Shown piece after piece: positions 6,079 through 57,804 of a DNA stretch of 64,000 nt. Origin of the DNA: Phoronis australis (Eukaryota > Animalia > Phoronida); the NCBI GenBank assembly GCA_002633005.1, contig NMRA01000001.1, forward strand, positions 1,521,755-1,585,754. The letters are read 5' to 3'. Below the pieces are notes generated by a model that did not search any database, was not told the DNA's origin, and saw only the letters and a list, made by a program, of their open reading frames with translations. A program made the position numbers and the translations under genes. The stretch's first letter is position 1. Every line of letters begins with the position of its first letter.

Positions 6079-9000
6079 CTGAAGTTATAATATGTAGGAT
6101 TAATTATTACCCACTTTGGTAAAACTTCTTCAAATTAGAACATAATATGGAAGATGAGTGAAATTTCATTTTAACCTTTTTTCATGAAATTATGAGTAGC
6201 ACCAAAATAAATGCTTTAGTTACCATAACTACCATACTTCAGGTAATATGACTATTTCTTTGGGACATCCCAATTCACAGAATGATGAGTATCTATGGTT
6301 ATATCGAAGTCAGAATGGAGGTGTTATTTTTGGTGTAATAAACAGTTTCATTCCAATTATTCTATCTACCTACCTCCAGGCAACTGTTTTCACTCATATT
6401 TGGGTCACCCTGTATAACCACTATGTACTACCTCCAGGAAAATGTTTTCACTCATATTTGGGTCACCCTGTATAAACACTATGTCCTACCTCCAGGAAAC
6501 TGTTCACTCATATTTGGGTCACCCTGTAACACCACTACGCCTTACCTCCAGGCGACTATTTTCACTCATCAGCTGCTGCAAGACTTCCAGTAACTCATCT
6601 TCGTCCTCCTCACTGTCTGATGAACTATCCGAGGTTGACGATGCGTCCGAGTCCATGCTTTGCGACCGTATACTTCGTAGCTCTTCGATCTCTTCAATAT
6701 CCTGCTGCAGTCGTTCAATCTCTAATGTCTCTGACTCAATTTTCTTTTTAATCTCATCACCTGAATCAAAGATAAGGAAGGATGTAAGGCCACAATACAT
6801 ACAGTTAGTTCCGAATTCAATTTTTTTACATCAAAACAAGGACTAAACTAGAGAGACAATGCTAACGCCACGCACTTCCTTATTTAGAAAATTCACACAA
6901 ATGGAGATTTCATGGCAAATTTGAACTGAACACATTGAGCAACCATTTCTAATATTGTGTTCCTGCACCAAGCTAAGCACAGTCTCGTCAACATTACATA
7001 ACATTATATCATCACCCATAGTCACGTATCGCTAATAGTTCTTCCTCTTCCAACAACAAAATAACGTGTTCGTGTAGTAAGCTAAGCACAGTCTCGTCAA
7101 TATTATATAACATTACATCATCACCCATACTCACGTATCGCTAGTAGTTCTTCCTCTTCCAACAACAAAATAACGTGTTCCTGTAGTAAGCTAAGCACAG
7201 TCTCGTCTTCAGCATCATTGTCACCATCACTTGTATTGCCTACAAAGTACAACGGTCCATCAACAGTCAGCTGATATACAACAACATTTGGCAAGGGTTG
7301 ATCAGACATACAAAGTAAACCAATGCACTACCAAAGACAGGCCAACACAACTTTCATTTCACAGGTCCACAGTATATGTTTTGTATTTGAAGTTCCCAAG
7401 AATGAAGATAGGGTATTTTGCTAGACACGTGAAATATTGTGAATACGGACAATTTTTGTGAATGAGGGTTGAGATATACTTAAGCCACTTAAATGAAACA
7501 CACTCCAGAACACGTATTTGTTTTAGAGAACTAATTTTTACTAGATAACTGTTTATTCATCTTAAAGAAACTGAACAAAAAGTGATACAATTACTGCCTG
7601 CAAATCGATAACACTGCAGGCATTCATTTTTCTCTGATTTTAGATTGGCATGTTTTGGCAGCTTTGATGTTTGGTCATCCTCTGCTTGCGTTTTTACAGT
7701 CGGGGGTTTCAGTTGACAAAAGGCGACATCTATTGTCTGGGTGGCTTGAATAAAAAATGGTATTCCATGGCTAGCTGATCAACATCACAGCCCAGTGAAA
7801 GTTGCACCATGTTTCAGGCAATCAGAGGACAGAAGTATCAGTGAGTGCGTAATAATTACTGAAATTTTCACCTACCTGTGCAGAATTCATCATCAAGTGT
7901 TTCCTCACTGCTCTCTGTTCTTTCTACTGCTTCTGTGTCTGATCCCTCACCTTTGACCTCTGACCCAGCATCGCTCNACAATTAGTCCCGAATTCAATTT
8001 TTTTTACATCAAAACAAGGACTAAACTAGAGAGACAACGCAACCGCCACGCACTTCCTTATTTAGAAAATTCACACAAATGGAGGTTTCATGGCAAATTT
8101 GAACTGAACACACTGAGCAACCATTTCTAATAATGCGTTCCTTCAGCAAGCTAAGCACAGTCTCGTCAATATTATATAACATTACATCATCACCCATACT
8201 CACGTATCGCTAATAGTTCTTCCTCTTCCAACAACAAAATAACGTGTTCCTGTAGTAAGCTAAGCACAGTCTCGTCAATATTATATAACATTACATCATC
8301 ACCCATACTCACGTATCGCTAATAGTTCTTCCTCTTCCAACAACAAAATAACGTGTTCCTGTAGTAAGCTAAGCACAGTCTCGTCTTCAGCATCATTCTC
8401 ACCATCACTTGTATTGCCTACAAAGTACAACGGTCCATCAACAGTCAGCTGATATACAACAACATTTGGCAAGGGTTGATCAGACATACAAAGTGAACCA
8501 ATGCACTACCAAAGACAGGCCAACACAACTTTCATTTCACAGGTCCACAGTATATGTTTTGTATTTGAAGTTCCCAAGAATGAAGATAGGGTATTTTGCT
8601 AGACACGTGAAATATTGTGAATACGGACAATTCTTGTGAATGAGGGTTGAGATATACTTAAGCCACTTAAATGAAACACACTCCAGAACACGTATTTGTT
8701 TTAGAGAACTAATTTTTACTAGATAACTGTTTATTCATCTTAAAGAAACTGAACAAAAAGTGATACAATTACTGCCTGCAAATCGATAACACTGCAGGCA
8801 TTCATTTTTCTCTGATTTTAGATTGGCATGTTTTGGCAGCTTTGATGTTTGGTCATCCTCTGCTTGCGTTTTTACAGTCGGGGGTTTCAGTTGACAAAAG
8901 GCGACATCTATTGTCTGGGTGGCTTGAATAAAAAATGGTATTCCATGGCTAGCTGATCAACATCACAGCCCAGTGAAAGTTGCACCATGTTTCAGGCAAT

Positions 9001-24050: not shown

Positions 24051-24465
24051 ATGTCACGATTCGCAGAACGTCATAAACATTTCTTTCCACTGAACAGTAT
24101 CAAGTCAGTTCTCGGTTTGTTCGAAACAGAACTGTCACAAAAAGAAGAACCCGATCTGGCCTTACTTTCCATAATCCTTGGTGCTGTTGAAAATATTTTG
24201 ACTGTAAACCGCGCGCTACCAAATCATTTGGAAGATGCCGCAAATTTGGAACCGATTTTTCCCGTGGTCGATTTGCAAACAGTGGACACCCTGTACTCTA
24301 AATTCGTGAGGTTTATCAAAGACTCTGTTGACCTGTCAGATTACGAGAAAGACTATGCAACTCGGGACTTGATCAAAAAAGTATCTGACGTTATTTGGAG
24401 CACGCTGACACGAAGTGTTTATAAAGACAAAGCTCATCTGCAGTCTCTTTACAGTTTTTTGACAG
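24051..24465 (+). CDS. MEN1: MEN1 coding exon 1
   Basis: [17 protein letters not shown]...[14 protein letters not shown]; acag|gtgtgc donor. Confidence 0.92.
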
Positions 24466-27400
24466 GTGTGCAAAAGGCCGATGATATCGCCGTGAAGCAA
24501 TGTGGTTCAAATTTTCAGTGATCGTTTGCTGTACATTTGGGAAAAGTGCTGTCAAAATTGTTGTTTGGAGAACTAAGAATGTTGCATTCATGAACAGAAG
24601 CTTTGTTTGCCTTTAGAGAGGGATCAACCACTGTCTCTACTGGCACCGCCAGAAGAGTCAGTGGTGCTCATAGGCACTTCATACGCCGTAAGTTTTTTGG
24701 CAAAGTATGCCTCGCACTGACTAAAACATCAAAGTTACATTGTTATAAATACCTTTTGCGCATAGAAGGACACCTTAGGAGCCCGTCGATGCTTTTAATT
24801 CTTTCCAATTCGAACAAATACTCCCGTTATCAAACTTTTTCTTCAACCAGTCCCTCGTTCAGTTCCCAAAACTCGTAACTCACCATTTTGAACACTGCGC
24901 ACGCCAGGGTATATGATGTCATACCACCTGCCGTGCGCAGTGTTAAAAATGGTGAGTTACCGATTTTGGAACTTAATGACTGCTCGAAGGAAAAGTTTGA
25001 TAACAGGAGTACTTGTTTGAGTTGGAAGTAATTAAATACATCGACGGCCTCCTAAGTTGTCCCTCTATGCGCAAAAGGTATTTATAACAAGGTGTCTGAT
25101 TTTTTAGTCTGTGCGAGGCATAATTTGCCGAAAAGCTTTCGGTATGAAGCGCCTATGGGAGGTCTACCATCCTACTGGCAGTGCCAGTTTGCCTGCACTA
25201 ATTGAATATAGTGGTCATTCTTATTTTGAGGTCCTGGGTTGATTTGCATACAACTTCAAAAGCTATCCGTTGGAAAAGTTTGATTTTTGCATGATATCAG
25301 GTTTTTTAACAGCATGACACGTGATAATGCAACGTCATAACTTTTATGCAACTGGGCCCAGACAACCACTGAATAACGGGCATGTTACTCAATGAATATA
25401 ATTGGTTTTCCAAATCAGGAAGCACCGTATTCAACCAGTGCTCATTGGTGGTTGGATGTTCTTATAACTTGTGCCTGGTAGAAGCTTGTCAACAAATTAC
25501 GCCTCACCCTGGCCTGGCAAAACTGTCAAAGTGAAGTTGTTGTGAGTACCATTCGAACAAAGAGGAACACCTTAGGAGAGTGTTGGTGTCTTCAAATCCT
25601 TCCAAATCTATCAAATACAATGTTTGGGGTGGGAGAATTCAGGGACATCGAGGACCTTTAAAGGTGTCCTCTGTGGTTAGGAGGTACTTACTGTAATGCT
25701 GTGATTTTGATGGTTTGGCAGGTGTGAGACAATTTTCCGAATAGCTTCCAGCATACATGGGGCCAATGACATGGCTTTTCTGGTCCATTTCAGTTGGTAA
25801 AACTGTCTATGCCATTGCTTAACAATGAACGGGGATCAATGTTAAATTGCTAAATGGCATGTGGACGATATATGGTAATGTGATCGTTTTTGTTTTTGTA
25901 CATGCTTTGTTATGTTACCCGTTGGTTTTATGTAACCAGGGTATTGACACCTGAATCAATAATAGTCTGGTGGCTATAAACTGGTATTCCTACTCAGAAA
26001 CCAACTTTTGTTTTTGACCGTGTAACATTTTGAAATTTGTCTCAAATTGTTATGCGCCCACATATTTATATGTGGACGCATTATTCTCTATTCATATTAA
26101 AGATAAGTTGTTGCCTTGGAAAAACGGAGTTAATTTATGCTTGAGACCAGACTCTACAAATTGGATTTTCACAGCACTTTATGTGCCAAGCATGGTCTCA
26201 AACGACAGCGAAAAATAACTTTTTTCAAAACCCAGACACCACACTAGTACGGTATGTCTCACATGGGTTAAGAACTAGTTGATGTCAGTTAATGGTCAGT
26301 TGTCTAAGTCAGTTTCTTTTATAAACATGATGCTTTGATTTACTGACATTTTTGTTGCAGGAGCTGCTGGAACACTAGCCTTCTGCCAAGGAGTAAATTA
26401 AGTTTTGTTTCCCCTAATGATTGAGTGACCATGAAACATTTGCGATTCAAAAATGTTTTATTTTGCACCTGTCAAAAGAATTTTTTTCTTTTGTTTGTTA
26501 TATAACACATTTCTGACATCGAAAATGAGTGCGCTCTGACAATGACAAGTGGAAAGAAAACATTTTACCTCCATTCCTACCTATCATAAACTAGTGGGGT
26601 TCTGGAGGGGAAATCGACCATAATTTTAAAGCCAACTTCGTTCTGTTTAGTTGGCTAAGAAACGCAAGTCAATTTGGGCCTTTTACTCTCATCAAATTGG
26701 TTATGTAATATTTCTTTCCATGATAGGATTCCATGCCTGTAAGAAAATGCTTCAGAAAATATGGTGCATGTGCGTATGTGGTGCATGCACACAATGTGGT
26801 GCATGTACGCAATATGGTGCATGTACGCAATATGGTGCATGTACGCAATATGGTGCATGTACGCATGTGGTGCATGTACGCATGTGGTGCATGTACGCAA
26901 TGTGGTGCATGCACACAATGTGGCGTAAGTACCCACATGTACGCATTACCTGCGTCTTGAGTTGGCAAAAGATTTATAGAATCCCATCGCTATAAGGAAT
27001 ATCATGAGATGGTTAATGAACGAAAAAGGCCCAATTTGATTTTTGTTTTACATCCAGCTAAACGAGGCAAAATGCAGCTTTAAGGACAGACTTAATTTAT
27101 TGTTTAGCTCTCAGTGATATCAAATGAAATCCATTTTTTGTTCACAGGGAACAAGTTGGACTGCTTCGGTGTGGCATTCAGCCTTGTAGCAGCTTGTCAG
27201 CTACTGGGATTTAAAGATGTCCATCTAGCGCTCTCCGAGGACCACGCTTGGGTGGTTTTTGGGGAATGTGGTTCAGAGACTGCTGAGGTCACATGGCACG
27301 GTATAGGGTTTGTTTTATTTGGTCTAAAATACAAGCATATAAATCATGCTTGAGCTTTATGCTTAATTGTTGCATGTGTGTGCGACATGGCCAAACCAGC

Positions 27401-30400
27401 TAGAGAATTTTGAGTCATGCTGTTGAAAAAGTTGAAAACACGAGAAATGGATCTCCTGATAACGAAGATAATGTTGATTTCATTTTCATTAATAGTTGGA
27501 TGCTGTCTTGATATGTTTTGAAGACATTTCAAAGATCCACACTGTACTAATTAGGTCAAGTTGAAATTGCAAACTTCTTAGTGACTGAAATAAACCAAGT
27601 TTTTGGTGGTGAATCTTTCCCTTGAAGCAGTCAATGAACTCACCCAATTCATTTCATGATTTTAATAAGTGTGAAAAACTCACTATACTATAAAGCAAAA
27701 CAATGGCTTCTTCTGCAAAACCTAGAAGAGGGATTTCTCGATGGTACTGCAGAGGGCTATAGGTTATCATGTGGTTTCAAACAGGTGTTTCGTACACTTT
27801 ACCCAGCTTGGTGACCAGCCCACATCTGTGATTTTTATCATGTGGTTTATGAAGTGACCTTAGCCTTTCTATCATTAGGAATGCAGAAAATAGTTTTATT
27901 TAAATATTAAGGATTTTAAACTTATTTGAAAATACTACTAACACGTGCATTTTTATAGACTATTTTGCTCCGTGTGTTTTTGTCTCCAGAGCACAGCTTG
28001 CTGTCATATCTCTTGCATACCACTTGTCTCCAGCCCCTCATTCTCTCGTCTAATCATACATGATAAAAGTCATGGGCTCATTGCTGATTAAGTGATAACA
28101 TATCTATTGTTCTAGTGTCCGTCCATAGATAGTCCAGCAATGTTGAAGCTGTCAACACACATAGTCATGGTGCATGTGTCAGATAACGATATAACATCCT
28201 GGACTTCTCAACTATTGATTTTAAGGGCAGTTTCGTTTGTTTGTAAAATTCAGGACGCGATTGTGTGGGGGTGTGTATGTGACAGCTGGTTACCTTATTG
28301 TCTAGAGATATGCCAGTACCATTTCTTCGCATAGACCACCAATGTTTTTGAAATATTCTTCAGAATATCTTTGATATAATAATTACGAACCATAATTTTG
28401 TATCTAGACTCGTAACTGAAGTGTTTTCAAAATGCAACGAACTACTTGGATTTTGTGATCAGGACCATGACCTCTGACCTCTGACCTCAAAGATTAACTG
28501 AGCAGAGTTCATGCCATGGACATGTTTTTACTGAGTCTATATCCTAGACTGTTCTCTTCTACCTAATGTAGGAGGTAATTTTTAGCTTATTTTGCACAAA
28601 AAATAATTGCCAAAAGTGTTGTTTTTCTATTTTTCTAAAGACTCTGAGATAACTTTACTACAATTATTGGAAAATTCACCAAAAAGTTGGTTTATGACAT
28701 CTACGCAGTACAAACCATGCTAGCTGTACACTAAAAATTTCTTAATCTTTTTTTGTGTAGAATTTTGACAAAATAGAATTACTCTTGTCTGTCGTATTGT
28801 TACGTAAATAAGTGAAGAATTCACTTAACACACTACCTTGACAATTGAGAAAATAGACCCCTGAGATAAAGCAATAGATGAAAAACCTGTGGGCTTAATG
28901 TGCCTATTATGTGACTCTTGAGCACACATTCTTGAGAAATGATCAGGGGCCAGGGGCCTGTTCCAAGAAACGGACTTAAGTTCATTTTTTACTTAAGTTT
29001 AAGATTTGTCTTAACTTCCAAACTGTAACTTCCACATTCGATAAGTTAGTCAAAATTAAGACAAAACTTATGCCAAACACTTATTAAGTCAAACTAAAGA
29101 TTTCTCTCTTCAATTGGTTTTGAGACAAATTTAACTTTTATTTAAAAATTTACTAGAATTTTTTAACATTTGTCTTAGCTAAGTCAGTTTTGTTGGAATG
29201 GGCCCCTGGACTTAATCATAAAAAAATCATTTTCTGCAAATCATGTGGGCCTAATCCAGGTGAAAGGAAAATTTTCTTGCTTTTGCTATCTACTACATCT
29301 GACCCGTTTTGGTTTGTTTGTGTTGCAGGTAAGGGTAATGAAGACAAGCGAGGTCAACCCATCAATGTGGGGGTGGCAGAAAAGAGCTGGCTCTATTTAA
29401 ACGGACACCCTGTGGTTTGCACAAGGTGCACCGAAGTGGCAGCCATTGTGTCGAGCATCAACCCCACGATCAATGCATGCACAGACAGTGTAGAGATGGG
29501 CTCGCTCCAACAGGTGTGGTTTATTTGAGCTGTTTGATGAAACTTTTCAGTTGTATGATTTCTCAAATATTGTCCAAAATTTGTGGATACAGCGCTGCTG
29601 CTGGTAAGAAAGTTTCACCAAATGTTGCTCGATGGTTGCTGTGCATCTCAAACTACACTAACAAGTTAGTGAAACTTTTATTTGGGGATTACAGTTTTCA
29701 CAAAATTTTATTTTACTGCAAAGAATTTCTGAAAAGCATTTTTATGCGCCCACATATTTATATGTGGACGCATTATGCCGTCATCTCCGTCCGTCCGTAC
29801 GGGCGGCGTCCGTCCGGCGTCTGGCGTCCGGCGTCCGCTGCTCTATCTCCAAAACCCTTTGACATATGTTCATGAAATTTGGCACATATGTTCCATTCAT
29901 GAATGGGACGGCATGTGCGAACTTTCGGATGGATCCGACTACCGGTGTGCCCCCTAGTGGCAATTTGAGTTTTTTACGCTTACCTCTGTATCTTCAAAAG
30001 TCCTGAACGGATTTTCATGAAATTTGGTATGTAGGCACTTATTAGTGAGATGCCGCTGTCCTCCCGTTTTCAGATGGATTCGACATAGTTTGCGCCACCT
30101 AGTGGCCATTTTTAGTGTTTTCGAGTGTGTTTTTGAGCGTCCACCCCTCTTATCAACCAAACCGCTCAAAGGATGGTTGTGAAAATTGGCATGTATGTGC
30201 TTACTACAAAGATGACAGCTGACAATGATTTTCAGNGTGATCAGGAGCATGACCACTGACCTCAAGCATTAACTGAGCAGAGCTCATGCCATGGACATGT
30301 TTTACTGAGTCTATATCCTAGACTGTTCTTTTGTACCTAATGTAGGAGGGAATTTTTAGCTTATTTCGCATAAAAAATAATTGCCAAAAGTGTTGTTTTT

Positions 30401-33400
30401 CTATTTTTCTAAAGACTCTGAGATAACTTTACTACAATTAATGGAAAATTCACCAAAAAATTGGTTTATGACATCTACGCAGTACAAACCATGCTAGTTG
30501 TAGACTAAAAATTTCTTAATCTTATTTTTGTGTATAATTTTGACAAAAGGTCTGTCGTGTTGTTACATAAATAAGTGAAGAATTCACTTAACACAATACC
30601 TTGACAATTGAGAAAATAGACCCCTGAGATAAAGCAATAGATAAAAAACCTGTGGGCTTAATGTGCCTATTATGTGACTCTTGAACATACATACTTGAGA
30701 AATGATCAGGGGCCAGGGGCCTGTTCCAAGAAACTGACTTAAGTTCATTTTTGACTTAAGTTTAAGATTTGTCTTAACTTCCAAACTTTGTAACTTCCAA
30801 ATTCAATAAGTTAGTCAAAATTAAGACAAAACTTATGCCAAACACTTATTAAGTCAAACTAAAGATTTCTCTCTTCAATTGGTTTTGAGACAAATTTAAC
30901 TTTTATTTAAAAATTAACTAAAATTTTTAAAGATTTGTCTTAGCTAAGTCAGTTTTGTTGGAATGGGCCCCTGGACTTAACCATAAAAAATCATTTTCTG
31001 CAAATCATGTGGGCCTAATCCAGGTAAAAGGAAAATTTTCTTGCTTTTGCTATCTACTACATCTGACCCGTTTTGGTTTGTTTGTGTTGCAGGTAAGGGT
31101 AATGAAGACAAGCGGGGTCAACCCATTAATGTGGGCGTGGCAGAAAAGAGCTGGCTCTATTTAAACGGACACCCTGTGGTCTGCACAAGGTGCACCGAAG
31201 TGGCAGCCATTGTGTCGAGCATCAACCCCACGATCAACGCATGCACAGACAGCGTAGAGATGGGCTCGCTCCAACAGGTGTGGTTTATTTGAGCTGTTTG
31301 AAATTTTTCACTTGTATGATTTCTCAAAAATTGTCCAAAATTTGTTTATATACAGCGCTGCTGCAGGTAAGCAAAGTTTTGCAAAATGTTGCTCAATGGC
31401 TGCTGTGCATCTCAAACTACACTAACAAGGTTGTGAAACTTTTATTTGGTGATTACGGTTTTCACAAAATTTTATTTTACTGCAAAGAATTTCTGAAAAG
31501 CATTTTATTTATGTATTTATTGTACGGTAATTCTTCACCTCTTTTGCATACAATACGGCGGACAAGTGAAATTCTATTCTATGAAATGTTTCCTCAGAGG
31601 TCTAGATTAAAAATATTTAATCTGTTATCAGCTTGATTTGCACTGAATACATGTCATAAAAGGATGTTTTACATTTGTTTTGTGCGAAATAAGTAGAGAC
31701 TTACTGTAATGTTTAAAATGACCTCGTCAGTGGTGGCACTGCATTCTAAAATACATTAAGTCATTTCTTTCCCTTGTTCTTATTATTTTCAATAAAGAGG
31801 TGCAAGCCAGACTTTAAGGTTCCTTAATGTGAACTTTAAATCTCCTCCCTATGTATCCATGGGTCTACTAAATCCACCTTTCAAAAGTTGAGGACCACTT
31901 CATTTGATTGTAAAAGCAATCCAGCAATCATTACGCTTATACGGAATGACCCAACACACACAACTACTCAATTTGGTTTTTCTTCAGTTCTGCAACTGTG
32001 GACAAACATTGACTTTCACTTTCAATGTACTTCCCCCAGTAATAATTGTTTACCTCCTGTGTTGCAATAATGCTCCTGCTTTAAGTTTTTTAGATTTGTG
32101 GACGCAAAATCATCTGAAAGGCATTCTACAGTACTTACATCTTCCCACAATGTCTTACTAAAGCTGCTTTGAGGTGGTGATGTGGTAACCTCATGTCTAA
32201 AATCTGTTGGTCTTTTTTACTCCAACCAACCAATATAAAATGTTCATCGTTGTCCACCATATACCCACCCGTGCTTGTTCTTCTAAGAACGCTGTAAGAC
32301 CTGAAGATGGCCGGAGAAATGACTGGCCGAAACGTAGCGTCAAAGTAGATGGGCTATAGGTTGATGTAAATAAACCAACACATTTTAGAATGATTTTCTC
32401 ACAAGTTTATTGCCTTATCATTAGATGCATGTTGTATGTATGTTTTTGTTTTTAAATAAAGGTTGTATCTTTGAGTAATTGTGATTTTTTGTTTTCAGGA
32501 ATTACTATGGTTACTCTATGACAAAGGCTATCTCAAAAAGTAAGAATGCTGAGTGATTTCATTCCAGTATGGTGAGGTCTAACTGATGCGTAGGTTTGAG
32601 TGCATGAATTACAACAACTGCACTGCTAAACTTTGCCCGAATCAAGTGAAAATCCGACTTATTTATGTCCGACTTGATATGCATGTTTTACTGCGCTGTC
32701 AATGACGTGGAAAACAAAAACANCCTAGAAGGATACCGTATACGGTGCAATTGTGGGCGCATTTCAACGCTCTGCGTTGCTCTTGTATTTGTATTTATTG
32801 TACGGTAATTCTTCACCTCTTTTGCATACAATACGGCAGACAAGTGAAATTCTATTCTATGAAATGTTTCCTCAGAGGTTTAGATTAAAAATATTTAATC
32901 TATTATTAGCTTGATTTGCACTGAATAACATGTCATAAAAGGATGTTTTACATTTGTTTTGTGCGAAATAAGTAGAGACTTACTGTAATGTTTAAAATGA
33001 CTAAGACCTCATCAGTGGTAGCACTGCATTCTAAAATACATTAAGTCATTGCTTTCCCTTGTTCTTAGTATTTTCAAGAAAGAGGTGCAAGCCAGACTTT
33101 AAGGTTCCTTAATGTGAACTTCAAATCTCCGCCCTATGTATCCAGGGGTCTACTGAATCCACCTTTCAAAAGTTGAGGTCCACTTCATTTGATTGTAAAA
33201 GCATTCCAGCAATCCTTACGCTTATACAGAATGACCCAACACACACAGCAACTCAATTTGGTTTTTCTTCAGTTCATTTGATGCAAAAATGCAGCTGCGG
33301 ACAAACACTGACTTTCACTTTCAATGTACTTCCCCCAGTAATAATTGTTTACCTCCTGTGTTGCAATAATGCTCCTGCTTTAAGTATTTTAGATTTGAGG

Positions 33401-36400
33401 ACGTAAAATCATCTGAAAGGCATTCTACAGTACTTACATCTTCCCACAATGTCTTACTAAAACTGCTTTGAGGTGGTGATGTGGAATCGTCATGTCTAAA
33501 ATCTGTTGGTCTTTTTTACACCAACCAATAAAAAATGCTCATTATTGACCACCATGAGCATGCCATATACTCACCCATGCTTGTTCTTCTAAGAAGGCTG
33601 TAAGACCTGAAGATGGCCGGAGAAATGACTGGCCGAAACGTAGCGTCAATGTAGATAGGCTAGAGGTTGGTGTAAATAAACCAACACATTTTAGAATGAT
33701 TTTCTCACAAGTTTATCGCCCTATCATTAGATGCATGTTGTATGTATGTTTTTGTTTTTGAATAAAGGTTGTATCTTTGAGTAATTGTGATTTTTTTGTT
33801 TTCAGGAATTACTATGGTTACTCTATGACAAAGGCTATCTCAAAAAGTAAGAATGCTGAGTGATTTCATTCCAGTATGGTGAGGTCTAACTGATGCGTAG
33901 GTTTGAGTGCATGAATTACAACAACTGCACTGCTAAACTTTGCCCGAATCAAGTGAAAATCCGACTTATTTATGTCCGACTTGATATGCATGTTTTACTG
34001 CGCTGTCAATGACGTGGAAAACAAAAACAGTGTTATCCTTAGGTGCAATAGTCAGGTAAAACGAAATACAGTAACAGCTCAAGATCTATCAACTTCTAAT
34101 TTGGCCAAAAACTAATATTGTGGTACTATTTCTAGCAAAGTTAAGTCAAGTTGTTTACAAATTTCAATTACATAACAGCATTGTGTATGAATAATTTGGT
34201 AAAGGTTTCTAACTTCTGCTTTTTCTATTCTGGGTAGTATTCTGATATGAGTTATGTTGGAATCACCGCAAATCAACTGCTGCACAAGATAATTTACGAA
34301 ATTTCTATATATTACTACAAACTTAAGTGCGTTAACTGCACTCTTTGAAGAGGCAAAGCATTTCTTTATTTTGAGCCAAAGATATTTCAGTGAGCTGATT
34401 CTGGGACATTTTAACATGTTATTGACGAAATTCCAGAAACTATGCTATTTTCCTGTACGTGCAAGAAGTATGTGTTGTGTGTGCAGTGTTGCAAATTTCC
34501 CTGTCATTTTTTAGGACACCAAGCAAAAATTTTTGCTCAGTCACAAAATAATTACTCGTATCTAACTAAAATATACATATAGTACAACTTCAAATTGAAT
34601 ACATCGCTCATTTTGGAAACAATACAAAGTAAAGAGAAGATGATTAAATTAGATATAAATCACTGTACATAGAAAGGAATACTAATTATAGTGACACTAA
34701 AAACATTGGTTGTCAGTTACTTGGTGTGTGGGTTTTAACAAGAAGATAATGCTTATACTTTGTTTCTGTAGATACCCCATGGCCATTGGTAATCTTGGCG
34801 ACTGTGAAGAGATCGCCCCCACCCCTGGCCGTCCGTCATCCCTTCAGCTGTTCAAGGAGGCAATCCAGAGCAGCGTGACTCACTATGACAACCAACACGT
34901 GTACCCCTACACGTATCTAGGGGGATTCTTGTACAGAAAGGGCCTGTACAAGGCTGCGTTGAAGTCTTGGGCTCAAGCAGCTGATGTGGTTAGAAAGTAA
35001 GTGTGTTCAAAGGATATTATTAAATCTCATTTTAGTTTAATCACACACTGATACTGACCACCACTGATTTTCTTATCTTTTTGAAACAGAGTATTGGTGT
35101 ATAACCCAGTTTCTCATTTTCATTCTTTTGTTTGAAAATTTGTAAGATCAAAATTAAAACTCCTCACTTTGGTTGAAATGTAATTACAATGTTGTGATGT
35201 ATCGTATTTTCAATGTTATTTACAATTACAATGTCATAACGTTATATCTTATTTACAATGTTGCTGTTGCAAATATTGTCCCATAATGTTATACTTTATT
35301 TCCAATATTATAGTAATTACAGTCATAAAACCTTAACATTGTGTCTTGTTTTAAATGTTTTAGTTACAATTATAATGCCATAACCTTACAGTTAAAATCA
35401 AAATACTCTAGCGTTGTGTATTATTTTCATTGTTACAGTTACAATTATAATGCCATGACCTTACAGTTAAAATCAAAATACTCTAGCGTTGTGTATTATT
35501 TTCATTGTTACAGTTACAATTATAATGCCATAATCTTACAGTTAAAATCAAAATACTCTAGCGTTGTGTATTATTTTCATTGTTACAGCTACAATTATAA
35601 TCGAGAGGATGAAGAAGTGTATAAGGAATTCTTAGAAATAGCCAATGAGCTCATTCCACAAATCATAAGAAATTCCCACGATTCTCTGCAGCAGGATGAC
35701 CTGCCAACAAACAACAATAAATCGGAAGACCTCAAGGTGTCGCTAGTGTCCTCGGATGAGCTGTCGTTCCTTCGCGATCCCGAGTGCTACCAATTACTCT
35801 TGTTGTTCTATGACGGAATTTGTGAATGGGAGGAGGGGAGCCCTACCTCCATTCTGCACTCATTCTGGGCTAAACATTTTGTGCAGTCACTTTCCAAGTT
35901 TGATCCCCGCACACGGACACAGTTTGAAGTAGTTGTTGGGGAGGAAGATAAATCTGGCGAGCTGGAGGGCTGCGACGAGCAGATTCCTGTCAAGCCTAGG
36001 CTGAAAAAGGCGAAAAAGTTCAAACATGACCGTGACGAAGAAGAGATGGTGATAAGACACGCCATTGAAGAACTTGAGCACCGAGTTAAAGGTGCGACTG
36101 AATCTGTTACAGACGCACCCAACCCGACTATCACAGCGTTGGCGCACGCATGCAGTGACTCCATATTGAATCCCGATTTTCTGCTTGGCTGCGGTGAACC
36201 ATTCACAATGGGCAGACAGAGTCCAGCGTCAGATAGAGTTGTTGATGTCAATGAGTTTCTCAGCTCAAACGCCAGATCTAGTCCATTTCCAGGACTAACA
36301 ATGGACTCGGTGTTGAAAGCCGAGACGCCAGTCGAAATGAAGATGGCAAAAAGCGAGCGTGCGTCAGAACATGGCAGTTTGGTCGAGGCAAACGTAGACT

Positions 36401-36597
36401 CTTGTGGTCCGATAACATTGAGGAGTGAAAAAATGAAGGGTATGAAAGACTTGTTGCTAGCAGAAAAATTAAACGCTAGCGCCATCAAGCTGCAGCTGAC
36501 AGCTCAGTCTCAGGTACACGTGAAGCACACGAAACCTGGGGACTCCGACTGGGACACGGAAGGCTTTGTGGCCAGAAAGCGCCACAGGAGGGAATGA
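24051..36597 (+). CDS. MEN1: Menin, gene span; join(24051-24465,27148-27300,29329-29513 [or 31093-31277],32499-32539 [or 33806-33846],34772-34996,35589-36597), 2028 nt, ~675 aa
   Basis: Diagnostic motifs [109 protein letters not shown]...[12 protein letters not shown] and a C-terminal basic NLS. Confidence 0.97.
24639..25188. mobile_element. Palindromic MITE / foldback element (~270-bp arms) in MEN1 intron 1
   Basis: Nearly full-length inverted symmetry centred at ~24915; related fragments at ~23370-23490 and ~25560-25755. Confidence 0.8.
26630..27079. mobile_element. TTAA-flanked MITE of the same family, carrying an internal minisatellite
   Basis: TTAA at 26626-26629 and 27080-27083; long imperfect TIRs similar to 43676-43958 and 3181-3513. 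Confidence 0.65.
26757..26945. repeat. 17-18 bp minisatellite (tggtgcatgtacgcaat-type, ~10 units)
   Basis: Direct inspection; explains the repetitive ORFs in all frames. Confidence 0.92.
27148..27300 (+). CDS. MEN1: MEN1 coding exon 2
   Basis: [11 protein letters not shown]...[13 protein letters not shown]...EVTWH. Confidence 0.93.
28950..29209. mobile_element. MITE with CCAGGGGCC...GGCCCCTGG termini (allelic copy 30713-30974)
   Basis: ~29-bp imperfect TIRs; internal cttaag-rich repeats. Confidence 0.65.
29329..29513 (+). CDS. MEN1: MEN1 coding exon 3, copy A
   Basis: [12 protein letters not shown]...SWLYLNG...SINP...SLQQ. Confidence 0.85.
29742..30235 (+). mobile_element. 5' part of a non-autonomous Helentron/HINE (DINE-1-like) element
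   Basis: Starts in a T run; subTIR ATGCGCCCACA within a hairpin; CCGT-type microsatellite follows; absent at the homologous site 31501-31510. Confidence 0.75.
31093..31277 (+). CDS. MEN1: MEN1 coding exon 3, copy B (probably allelic)
   Basis: Identical peptide; 6 synonymous differences counted by eye. Confidence 0.65.
32296..32342 (+). ncRNA. Hammerhead ribozyme-like motif in MEN1 intron 3, sense strand (allelic copy 33602-33648)
   Basis: CTGAAGA-t-GGCCGG-agaaatga-CTGGCC-GAAA-CGTAGCGTC; stem I poorly paired; lies inside a ~195-bp element with inverted ends. Confidence 0.5.
32499..32539 (+). CDS. MEN1: MEN1 coding exon 4 (41 nt), first copy
   Basis: [13 protein letters not shown]; tttcag acceptor, gtaaga donor. 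Confidence 0.75.
32724..32785 (+). mobile_element. 3' end of the same HINE-like element
   Basis: subTIR TGTGGGCGCAT (32752-32762, perfect reverse complement of 29744-29754), stem-loop CAACGC-TCT-GCGTTG, then the flank resumes. Confidence 0.75.
33806..33846 (+). CDS. MEN1: MEN1 coding exon 4 (41 nt), second copy
   Basis: Identical to 32499-32539; lies in the N-joined duplicate. Confidence 0.75.
34772..34996 (+). CDS. MEN1: MEN1 coding exon 5
   Basis: [13 protein letters not shown]...[10 protein letters not shown]...[10 protein letters not shown]. Confidence 0.93.
35356..35601. repeat. 75-bp tandem repeat spanning the acceptor of the MEN1 last exon
   Basis: ag|ttacaattataat (ag|ctacaattataat at the true site) at 35364, 35439, 35514, 35589. 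Confidence 0.92.
35589..36597 (+). CDS. MEN1: MEN1 terminal coding exon
   Basis: [20 protein letters not shown]...[12 protein letters not shown]...RKRHRRE*. Confidence 0.92.
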
Positions 36598-57608: not shown

Positions 57609-57804
57609 CAAGTTAAAGTGCCCAACTGCACTCAGCTGTGGAGGCAAATGAAAGTACCAAGTAAACTCAACTTGCGCAAGTTAAAGTGCCCAACTGCACT
57701 CAGCTGTGGAGGCAAATGAAAGTACCAAGTAAACTCAACTTGCGCAAGTTAAAGTGCCCAACTGCACTCAGCTGTGGAGGCAAATGAAAGTACCAAGTAA
57801 ACTC
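57609..57804. repeat. 68-bp tandem repeat, ~2.9 apparently identical copies
   Basis: caagttaaagtgcccaac... at 57609, 57677, 57745. Confidence 0.92.

Follow-up and report, generated by a model that had tools for sequence, protein, structure and literature searches.

A tandem repeat of the last menin intron–exon boundary in Phoronis australis, with upstream copies that are likely spliced out

The last coding exon of the menin gene (MEN1) of Phoronis australis is preceded by a tandem array of copies of its own acceptor region. Which of these acceptors does the gene use, that is, does the array lengthen menin or is it removed with the intron? From the window (the whole 64,000-nucleotide stretch of DNA that was analyzed, to which all coordinates refer), together with DNA and RNA reads and menin homologues, we consider it highly probable that the array is a tandem repeat of the last menin intron–exon boundary (an acceptor-side ‘mirage’ minisatellite), with the upstream copies spliced out and likely silent.

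The MEN1 gene and its repeated last boundary

When joined, the exons of MEN1 give 675 codons and one terminal stop, and every intron is GT..AG. The three exons that were tested against Pfam match Menin (PF05053) with 128.3, 95.3, and 201.6 bits (cut-off 23.6) and are colinear. The features of the gene are as follows:

24051..36597, + strand: MEN1 (menin) gene, six coding exons
24051-24465, 27148-27300, 31093-31277, 33806-33846, 34772-34996, 35589-36597, + strand: MEN1 coding exons
34772..34996, + strand: penultimate coding exon; Pfam Menin positions 270-343; RNA depth stops at 34996
34997..35588, + strand: last intron, 592 nt; contains all of the array save its final 13 nt
35589..36597, + strand: last coding exon; Pfam Menin positions 345-655 from 35590

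The donor GT of the last intron is located at 34997-34998 (phase 2), with 34996 as the last exon base. Two of the exons are doubled in the assembly (29329-29513 / 31093-31277 and 32499-32539 / 33806-33846); the doubled exons sit in 1.2-kb blocks that are 94% alike and flank single Ns at 30236 and 32723. These blocks are likely both haplotypes put in tandem by the assembler, an arrangement that would mislead gene prediction. Intron 1 also contains an 18-bp minisatellite (9.4 copies, 26758-26923) that is away from any boundary.

At the boundary of the last intron and exon, TRF calls a repeat at 35339-35601 (period 75, 3.5 copies, 94% matches, no indels, score 463). The AGs of the array at 35362, 35437, 35512, and 35587 place the first exon bases at 35364, 35439, 35514, and 35589, so the 75-bp tandem unit and the four acceptors that had been proposed from the letters of the window are borne out. 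The parts of the array are:

35339..35376, + strand: boundary half-copy, with a diverged acceptor AG at 35362-35363 and 13 exon-like bases; on both haplotypes
35377..35451, + strand: 75-bp unit 1, with pseudo-acceptor AG 35437-35438; 6 nt at 35386 are missing from the second haplotype
35452..35526, + strand: 75-bp unit 2, with pseudo-acceptor AG 35512-35513; its junction letters are in contigs of all four DNA runs
35527..35601, + strand: 75-bp unit 3; its AG at 35587-35588 is the acceptor in use, and bases 1-13 of the exon follow

Each full unit is composed of 62 intron bases ending in AG, followed by 13 exon bases, and the three full units are identical to one another at 72-74 of 75 positions. 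The contexts of 35439 and 35514, which the sequence-only reading held to be shared with 35589, each differ from that of the true site in just one of 38 letters (-25 to +13); the context of 35364 agrees at 31 of 38 letters (the boundary half-copy, 31-32 of 38). The inner units are, therefore, homogenized and the boundary unit is diverged, as in mirages. A frame check of the four acceptors also agrees with the claim of a 25-codon, stop-free unit: all four share one frame, and no stop occurs in the unit. Two additional AGs occur in every unit; the one at 35390/35465/35540 is out of frame, and the one at 35410/35485/35560 is in frame.

Several other identities for the array were rejected. A transposon or satellite unrelated to the boundary does not fit a unit that ends exactly 13 bases into the conserved exon; a microexon array does not fit units that continue in frame into the exon; and intron gain does not apply, because no new intron is formed.

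The repeat had been described correctly, but the array is older and longer than was claimed: local alignment with a 50-nt boundary probe (35414-35463) locates three further decayed copies at 35198-35340. The four stretches compared with the probe besides the control were picked by eye, and their shuffle counts are post hoc. The decayed copies are:

35198..35244, + strand: decayed acceptor-region copy; AG lost; local score 52, 0 of 500 shuffles as high
35242..35291, + strand: decayed acceptor-region copy; AG lost; score 40, 0 of 500 shuffles; exon-frame stop at 35284
35296..35340, + strand: decayed acceptor-region copy (weak); AG kept at 35312; score 31, 7 of 500 shuffles

The weak copy contains exon-frame stops at 35311, 35314, and 35326. 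In the control stretch of the intron (35003-35185), the acceptor probe has no match above shuffles (139 of 500). The old copies are spaced by ~47-50 bp, as compared with 75 bp for the young units, and the AG is retained in four of the six upstream copies, being absent from the two oldest. To judge from these alignments, the boundary has been copied repeatedly, with the earlier copies decaying as the intron does.

Units, haplotypes, and the acceptor that is used

Could the array be a product of assembly? The exons duplicated around the Ns at 30236 and 32723 would support an artefact in which a gene with a single acceptor acquired the entire array, and no DNA contig covers the whole array from end to end. 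We compared contigs from four DNA runs (X1-X4; one sample, possibly the source of the window) on 34950-35850, a comparison that tests the assembly and not the population. The unit-to-unit junction is present in contigs of all four runs with zero differing letters, in records of 66 nt (X1 and X2) or 105 nt (X3 and X4); a length of 105 nt is what one complete pass through the 75-bp unit gives with 31-letter words (a word length deduced from 30-nt overlaps). Within this one sample, the last intron is highly heterozygous at 35177-35421, where the two haplotypes in X1, compared over 239 bases, show 11 substitutions plus a gap of 6 nt at 35386; the gap, which is flanked by two TTA triplets, keeps the frame and deletes the out-of-frame AG at 35390. 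The second X1 haplotype also carries the boundary half-copy. The junction in all four DNA runs and the half-copy on both haplotypes together mean that at least one extra unit is real. The junction has about haploid depth in X1, and the decayed upstream copies cannot stem from mis-assembly, so we give an artefact of the entire array almost no credence; the earlier assertion that the array is not the N-marked haplotype join stands, given the DNA contigs and the distance to the closest N (32723).

The number of units is a separate matter. The repeat may be real but overstated, that is, the diploid would have one extra 75-bp unit and the third copy would be an assembly product; this reading, which is compatible with a silent mirage, we regard as a serious contender with somewhat less than an even chance. 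The depths of the X1 contigs (30.3 and 26.8 for the haplotypes, 31.1 for the loop, and 69.4 and 80.3 for the shared core) match 1:1:1:2:3, as for one loop in a diploid; however, when the haploid depth is left free, k-mer flow modeling gives no separation of two cores from three, and the three literal units of the window fit equally (chi-square 2.4 vs 2.9, 4 df, in a rough Poisson treatment of correlated values). The depths are compatible with unequal unit numbers on the two haplotypes but do not fix these numbers. Position 35589 is C in the window and T in the RNA of X5, a difference that is synonymous in the split codon. We infer that the exit contigs of all four DNA runs (start 35572, one unlisted near-end difference) fit T at this position; together with the T in the RNA joint and the haplotype joins elsewhere in MEN1, this favors one extra unit. 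The C could be either a private allele or an error in the consensus; should T be correct, the sites at 35439 and 35514 would be identical to the true one over all 38 letters compared. The letters private to the third copy (35534 and 35589) occur in no contig or read; however, their absence proves nothing against that copy, since contigs drop rare variants. The bin 35539-35569 is without contig cover in every DNA run, and it is identical to the earlier copies, where contigs were placed.

The use of the acceptors was followed in three RNA runs (X5, X6, and X7, from a single study of other P. australis individuals; 18-19% of each run was covered). These provide 29, 16, and 13 reads, respectively, on 34750-35950, with a flank depth of ~9 reads. 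A fourth run, X8 (contigs, presumably of RNA), has no record on this stretch and counts as no evidence either way. None of the 58 reads is located inside the array, and the depth is zero in all 13 bins of 35037-35569 in X5-X7. The sole listed joint connects 34996 to 35590 with one letter, T, between them, that is, it uses the distal acceptor at 35589; it is found in six reads of X5, each with its own start, in which the shorter arm reaches up to 60 letters, and bin arithmetic suggests one more such read in X7. Counting the junction reads from donor 34996 for each acceptor, as the sequence-only reading proposed, thus places all six listed reads at 35589 and none at 35364, 35439, or 35514. X7 has the letters of the window at six exonic sites distributed over both sides of the intron, and X5 and X6 differ there; X5 gives six of the seven junction reads, and its exonic letters resemble the second haplotype, which may have fewer units. 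An upstream acceptor is used in none of the 7-11 informative reads, which puts the one-sided 95% upper limit for such use at ~35-24%. In these individuals, the RNA excludes inserts as the main product but is compatible with minor use in fewer than roughly one-quarter to one-third of transcripts.

A protein search with the longest open form (35365-36594) gives 680 menin-like proteins, 120 of which are listed; 29 of these hold both anchor motifs around the junction, and the other 91 are mostly last-exon fragments. The predicted spacing of the anchors is 39 residues for the distal site and 64, 89, or 114 for the upstream sites; among the 29 homologues, the spacing is 39 in 26 and 40 in 3 (a one-residue offset of the fallback pattern). 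No insertion occurs at the junction in any of these 29 listed homologues, all of which are distant (<55% identity), and a young, species-specific isoform would escape a comparison with distant relatives. The menin of the window has 38% identity to that of Branchiostoma belcheri and 43% to that of a nemertean. At the distal junction, Pfam positions 270-343 meet positions 345-655, and the position of the intron looks old, many genomic fragments starting just before the same motif.

The claim that upstream AGs insert 25, 50, or 75 residues into menin, therefore, gains no support from the reads in the array (0 of 58), the listed junction reads (6 of 6 distal), or the homologues (0 of 29). The alternative that had been offered, that is, that the spliceosome skips near-identical decoys, fits the data; the situation has already been described, however, so it poses no new problem. 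Precedents are the amphioxus mirages (PMC3087553, PMC3902484) and duplicated β-globin acceptors (PMC5389562).

Silent copies or leaky acceptors

How would four such similar acceptors resolve to the distal one? Only the last copy continues into real exon sequence, so those upstream of it are probably removed together with the intron. The last exon of MEN1 has a purine-rich stretch immediately beyond its 13 duplicated bases; past base 13, the purine share is 0.70 after the true site as compared with 0.49 after each copy, and the first 60 nt contain six GAR triplets after the true site and none after each upstream copy. Purine-rich runs act as exonic enhancers. The distal AG would then win because the copies have only 13 exon bases and are without the enhancer-like stretch behind the true site. 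A simple pattern detects no consensus-like branch point within 60 nt of the true site. Early globin duplication studies were divided on the choice of proximal or distal acceptors (PMC1557585).

The history of the array may be read in two steps: an older run of 47-50-bp boundary copies would have arisen first and then decayed, and the youngest unit would then have been multiplied by slippage, or by unequal crossing-over, with the 38-nt half-copy pairing with the true boundary 75 bp away. Its open frame would be chance. Of the intronic 21-codon windows of MEN1, 2001 of 6785 are stop-free (a composition-based prediction gives a fraction of 0.20), and a unit that is both in frame (one in three) and stop-free is expected by chance in 7-10% of cases; that the 75-bp unit and the 6-nt haplotype difference both keep the frame has a chance of 1 in 9. 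Insertion might, in addition, be selected against, as an insert would land five residues before the equivalent of human E359, located by alignment to solved human menin. According to PMC9361535, E359 is on the contact surface for MLL1 and JunD, and E359K lowers MLL1/MLL2 binding.

The main alternative to silence is low-level or tissue-specific use of the upstream acceptors, which would give menin with 25-, 50-, or 75-residue inserts, with selection holding the frame so that leaky splicing avoids truncation. The young unit is in frame and stop-free, and the 6-nt deletion of the second haplotype preserves the frame while removing the out-of-frame AG at 35390; however, the older copies are out of frame and have stops, the neighboring 58- and 109-bp arrays (see below) are out of frame as well, and slippage explains a 6-nt difference that is located between two TTA triplets. 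The pseudo-sites match the true site almost fully over -62 to +13, and pseudo-donors are used in human CBS and 6-16 (PMC1557585); nonetheless, the array has no RNA read among the 58, all six listed junction reads are distal, and none of the 29 homologues has an insertion, which would sit beside the MLL1/JunD contact. We judge low-level use to be unlikely, although the RNA bound on it reaches only about a quarter to a third.

We think even less probable its extension, in which an array of variable copy number sets the output of a leaky series of menin isoforms that carry 25-residue inserts next to the MLL1/JunD surface; selection would keep the youngest units (75 bp; 69 bp on the other haplotype) in frame, since menin would be truncated by a frameshift in its last exon. 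If this were true, the VNTR would be an allele-specific dial on a chromatin scaffold. With the silent, spliced-out array that we prefer, the locus is, as it stands, one more acceptor-side mirage, found beyond lancelets and of little consequence; its importance would grow only with proof that carriers produce menin with an insert.

Known boundary repeats and other arrays in the window

Mirages have been described in amphioxus, including globin BflGb6 (acceptor side), BflGb9, and Adh3 (PMC3087553) and Adh, troponin C, and PGBD5 (PMC3902484); those in BflGb6 and Adh3 leave splicing undisturbed (PMC3087553, PMC3902484). The MEN1 array shares five features of mirages: it spans the boundary, its unit size is in their range, AGs are retained, splicing is undisturbed, and units are homogenized. 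In both, the tandem unit joins the 3' end of an intron to the 5' part of the next exon; many, although not all, copies keep the splice dinucleotide; the inner copies are near-identical and the boundary copy is diverged; normal splicing is seen in RNA (for MEN1, at thin depth and in other individuals); and the genome contains several such arrays. The MEN1 units of 75 and ~47-50 bp fall inside the 10-160 bp range that PMC3087553 gives for amphioxus. Among the further features of mirages are copy numbers that differ between haplotypes, a difference that the depths at MEN1 would suit without fixing it, and somatic length instability (Adh3). Unlike the amphioxus mirages, the MEN1 array is in a host outside the lancelets, copies just 13 exon bases, has a youngest unit that is in frame and stop-free, and consists of two strata of unit length, 47-50 bp (old) and 75 bp (young); these old and young layers show how boundary arrays grow and decay.

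Boundary-spanning VNTRs are also present in human genes (F7 intron 7, 37 bp; CBS intron 13; interferon-inducible 6-16; LMNB2; and PDGF), and their pseudo-sites are silent in F7, LMNB2, and PDGF and partly used in CBS and 6-16 (PMC1557585). As in MEN1, the end unit of the minisatellite spans the exon–intron junction and leaves pseudo-sites; however, the human arrays are on the donor side, with the site of the intact exon most upstream, whereas the MEN1 array is on the acceptor side, with the site of the intact exon most downstream. In the literature searched, which is mostly that outside subscription journals, we found no acceptor-side human VNTR and no printed account of the MEN1 array.

The experimental parallel is provided by duplicated acceptors of human β-globin intron 1, in which 14, 55, or 205 exon bases were copied along with the site; the constructs originate from Reed and Maniatis 1986 (per PMC5389562), and splicing is distal only and very inefficient (PMC5389562). 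A proximal acceptor with 14 exon bases thus loses to the distal intact site, as in MEN1; the 55- and 205-base versions are also spliced distally, whereas the MEN1 copies carry 13 exon bases. The β-globin duplicates have two sites and were assayed in vitro; MEN1 has up to four sites, at a natural last exon. The MEN1 array is, therefore, a natural counterpart of the duplicated-acceptor experiment, in which the decoys match the true site throughout their 62 intron and 13 exon bases and diverge only in the sequence beyond.

Three more arrays of interest are located on the minus strand of the window:

6362-6569, - strand: 58-bp array; copies of a donor together with the end of the open exon-like frame (6760-6546) before it
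8129-8385, - strand: 109-bp array; the repeat takes in the greater part of an exon-like frame (8417-8313) along with its donor, found again after 8204
57609-57804, - strand: 68-bp array, 2.9 copies, 100% matches

The 58-bp array, the unit of which is not a multiple of three, has three more donor-like sites after 6490, 6432, and 6374; judged by its letters, it is a candidate donor-side mirage. The unit of the 109-bp array is not a multiple of three either. This array is doubled at 6957-7207, around an N at 7977; the doubling is likely a haplotype join, and in the second version of the block the extra copy has lost the donor consensus. Pfam searches with the two exon-like frames of the neighboring gene gave one weak Nup49_C match below the cut-off and one blank. 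Each copy of the 68-bp array has a pyrimidine-rich, acceptor-like end, with no exon found behind it. Boundary-spanning arrays seem to be common in the host genome, with three (the MEN1, 58-bp, and 109-bp arrays) in this 64-kb window.
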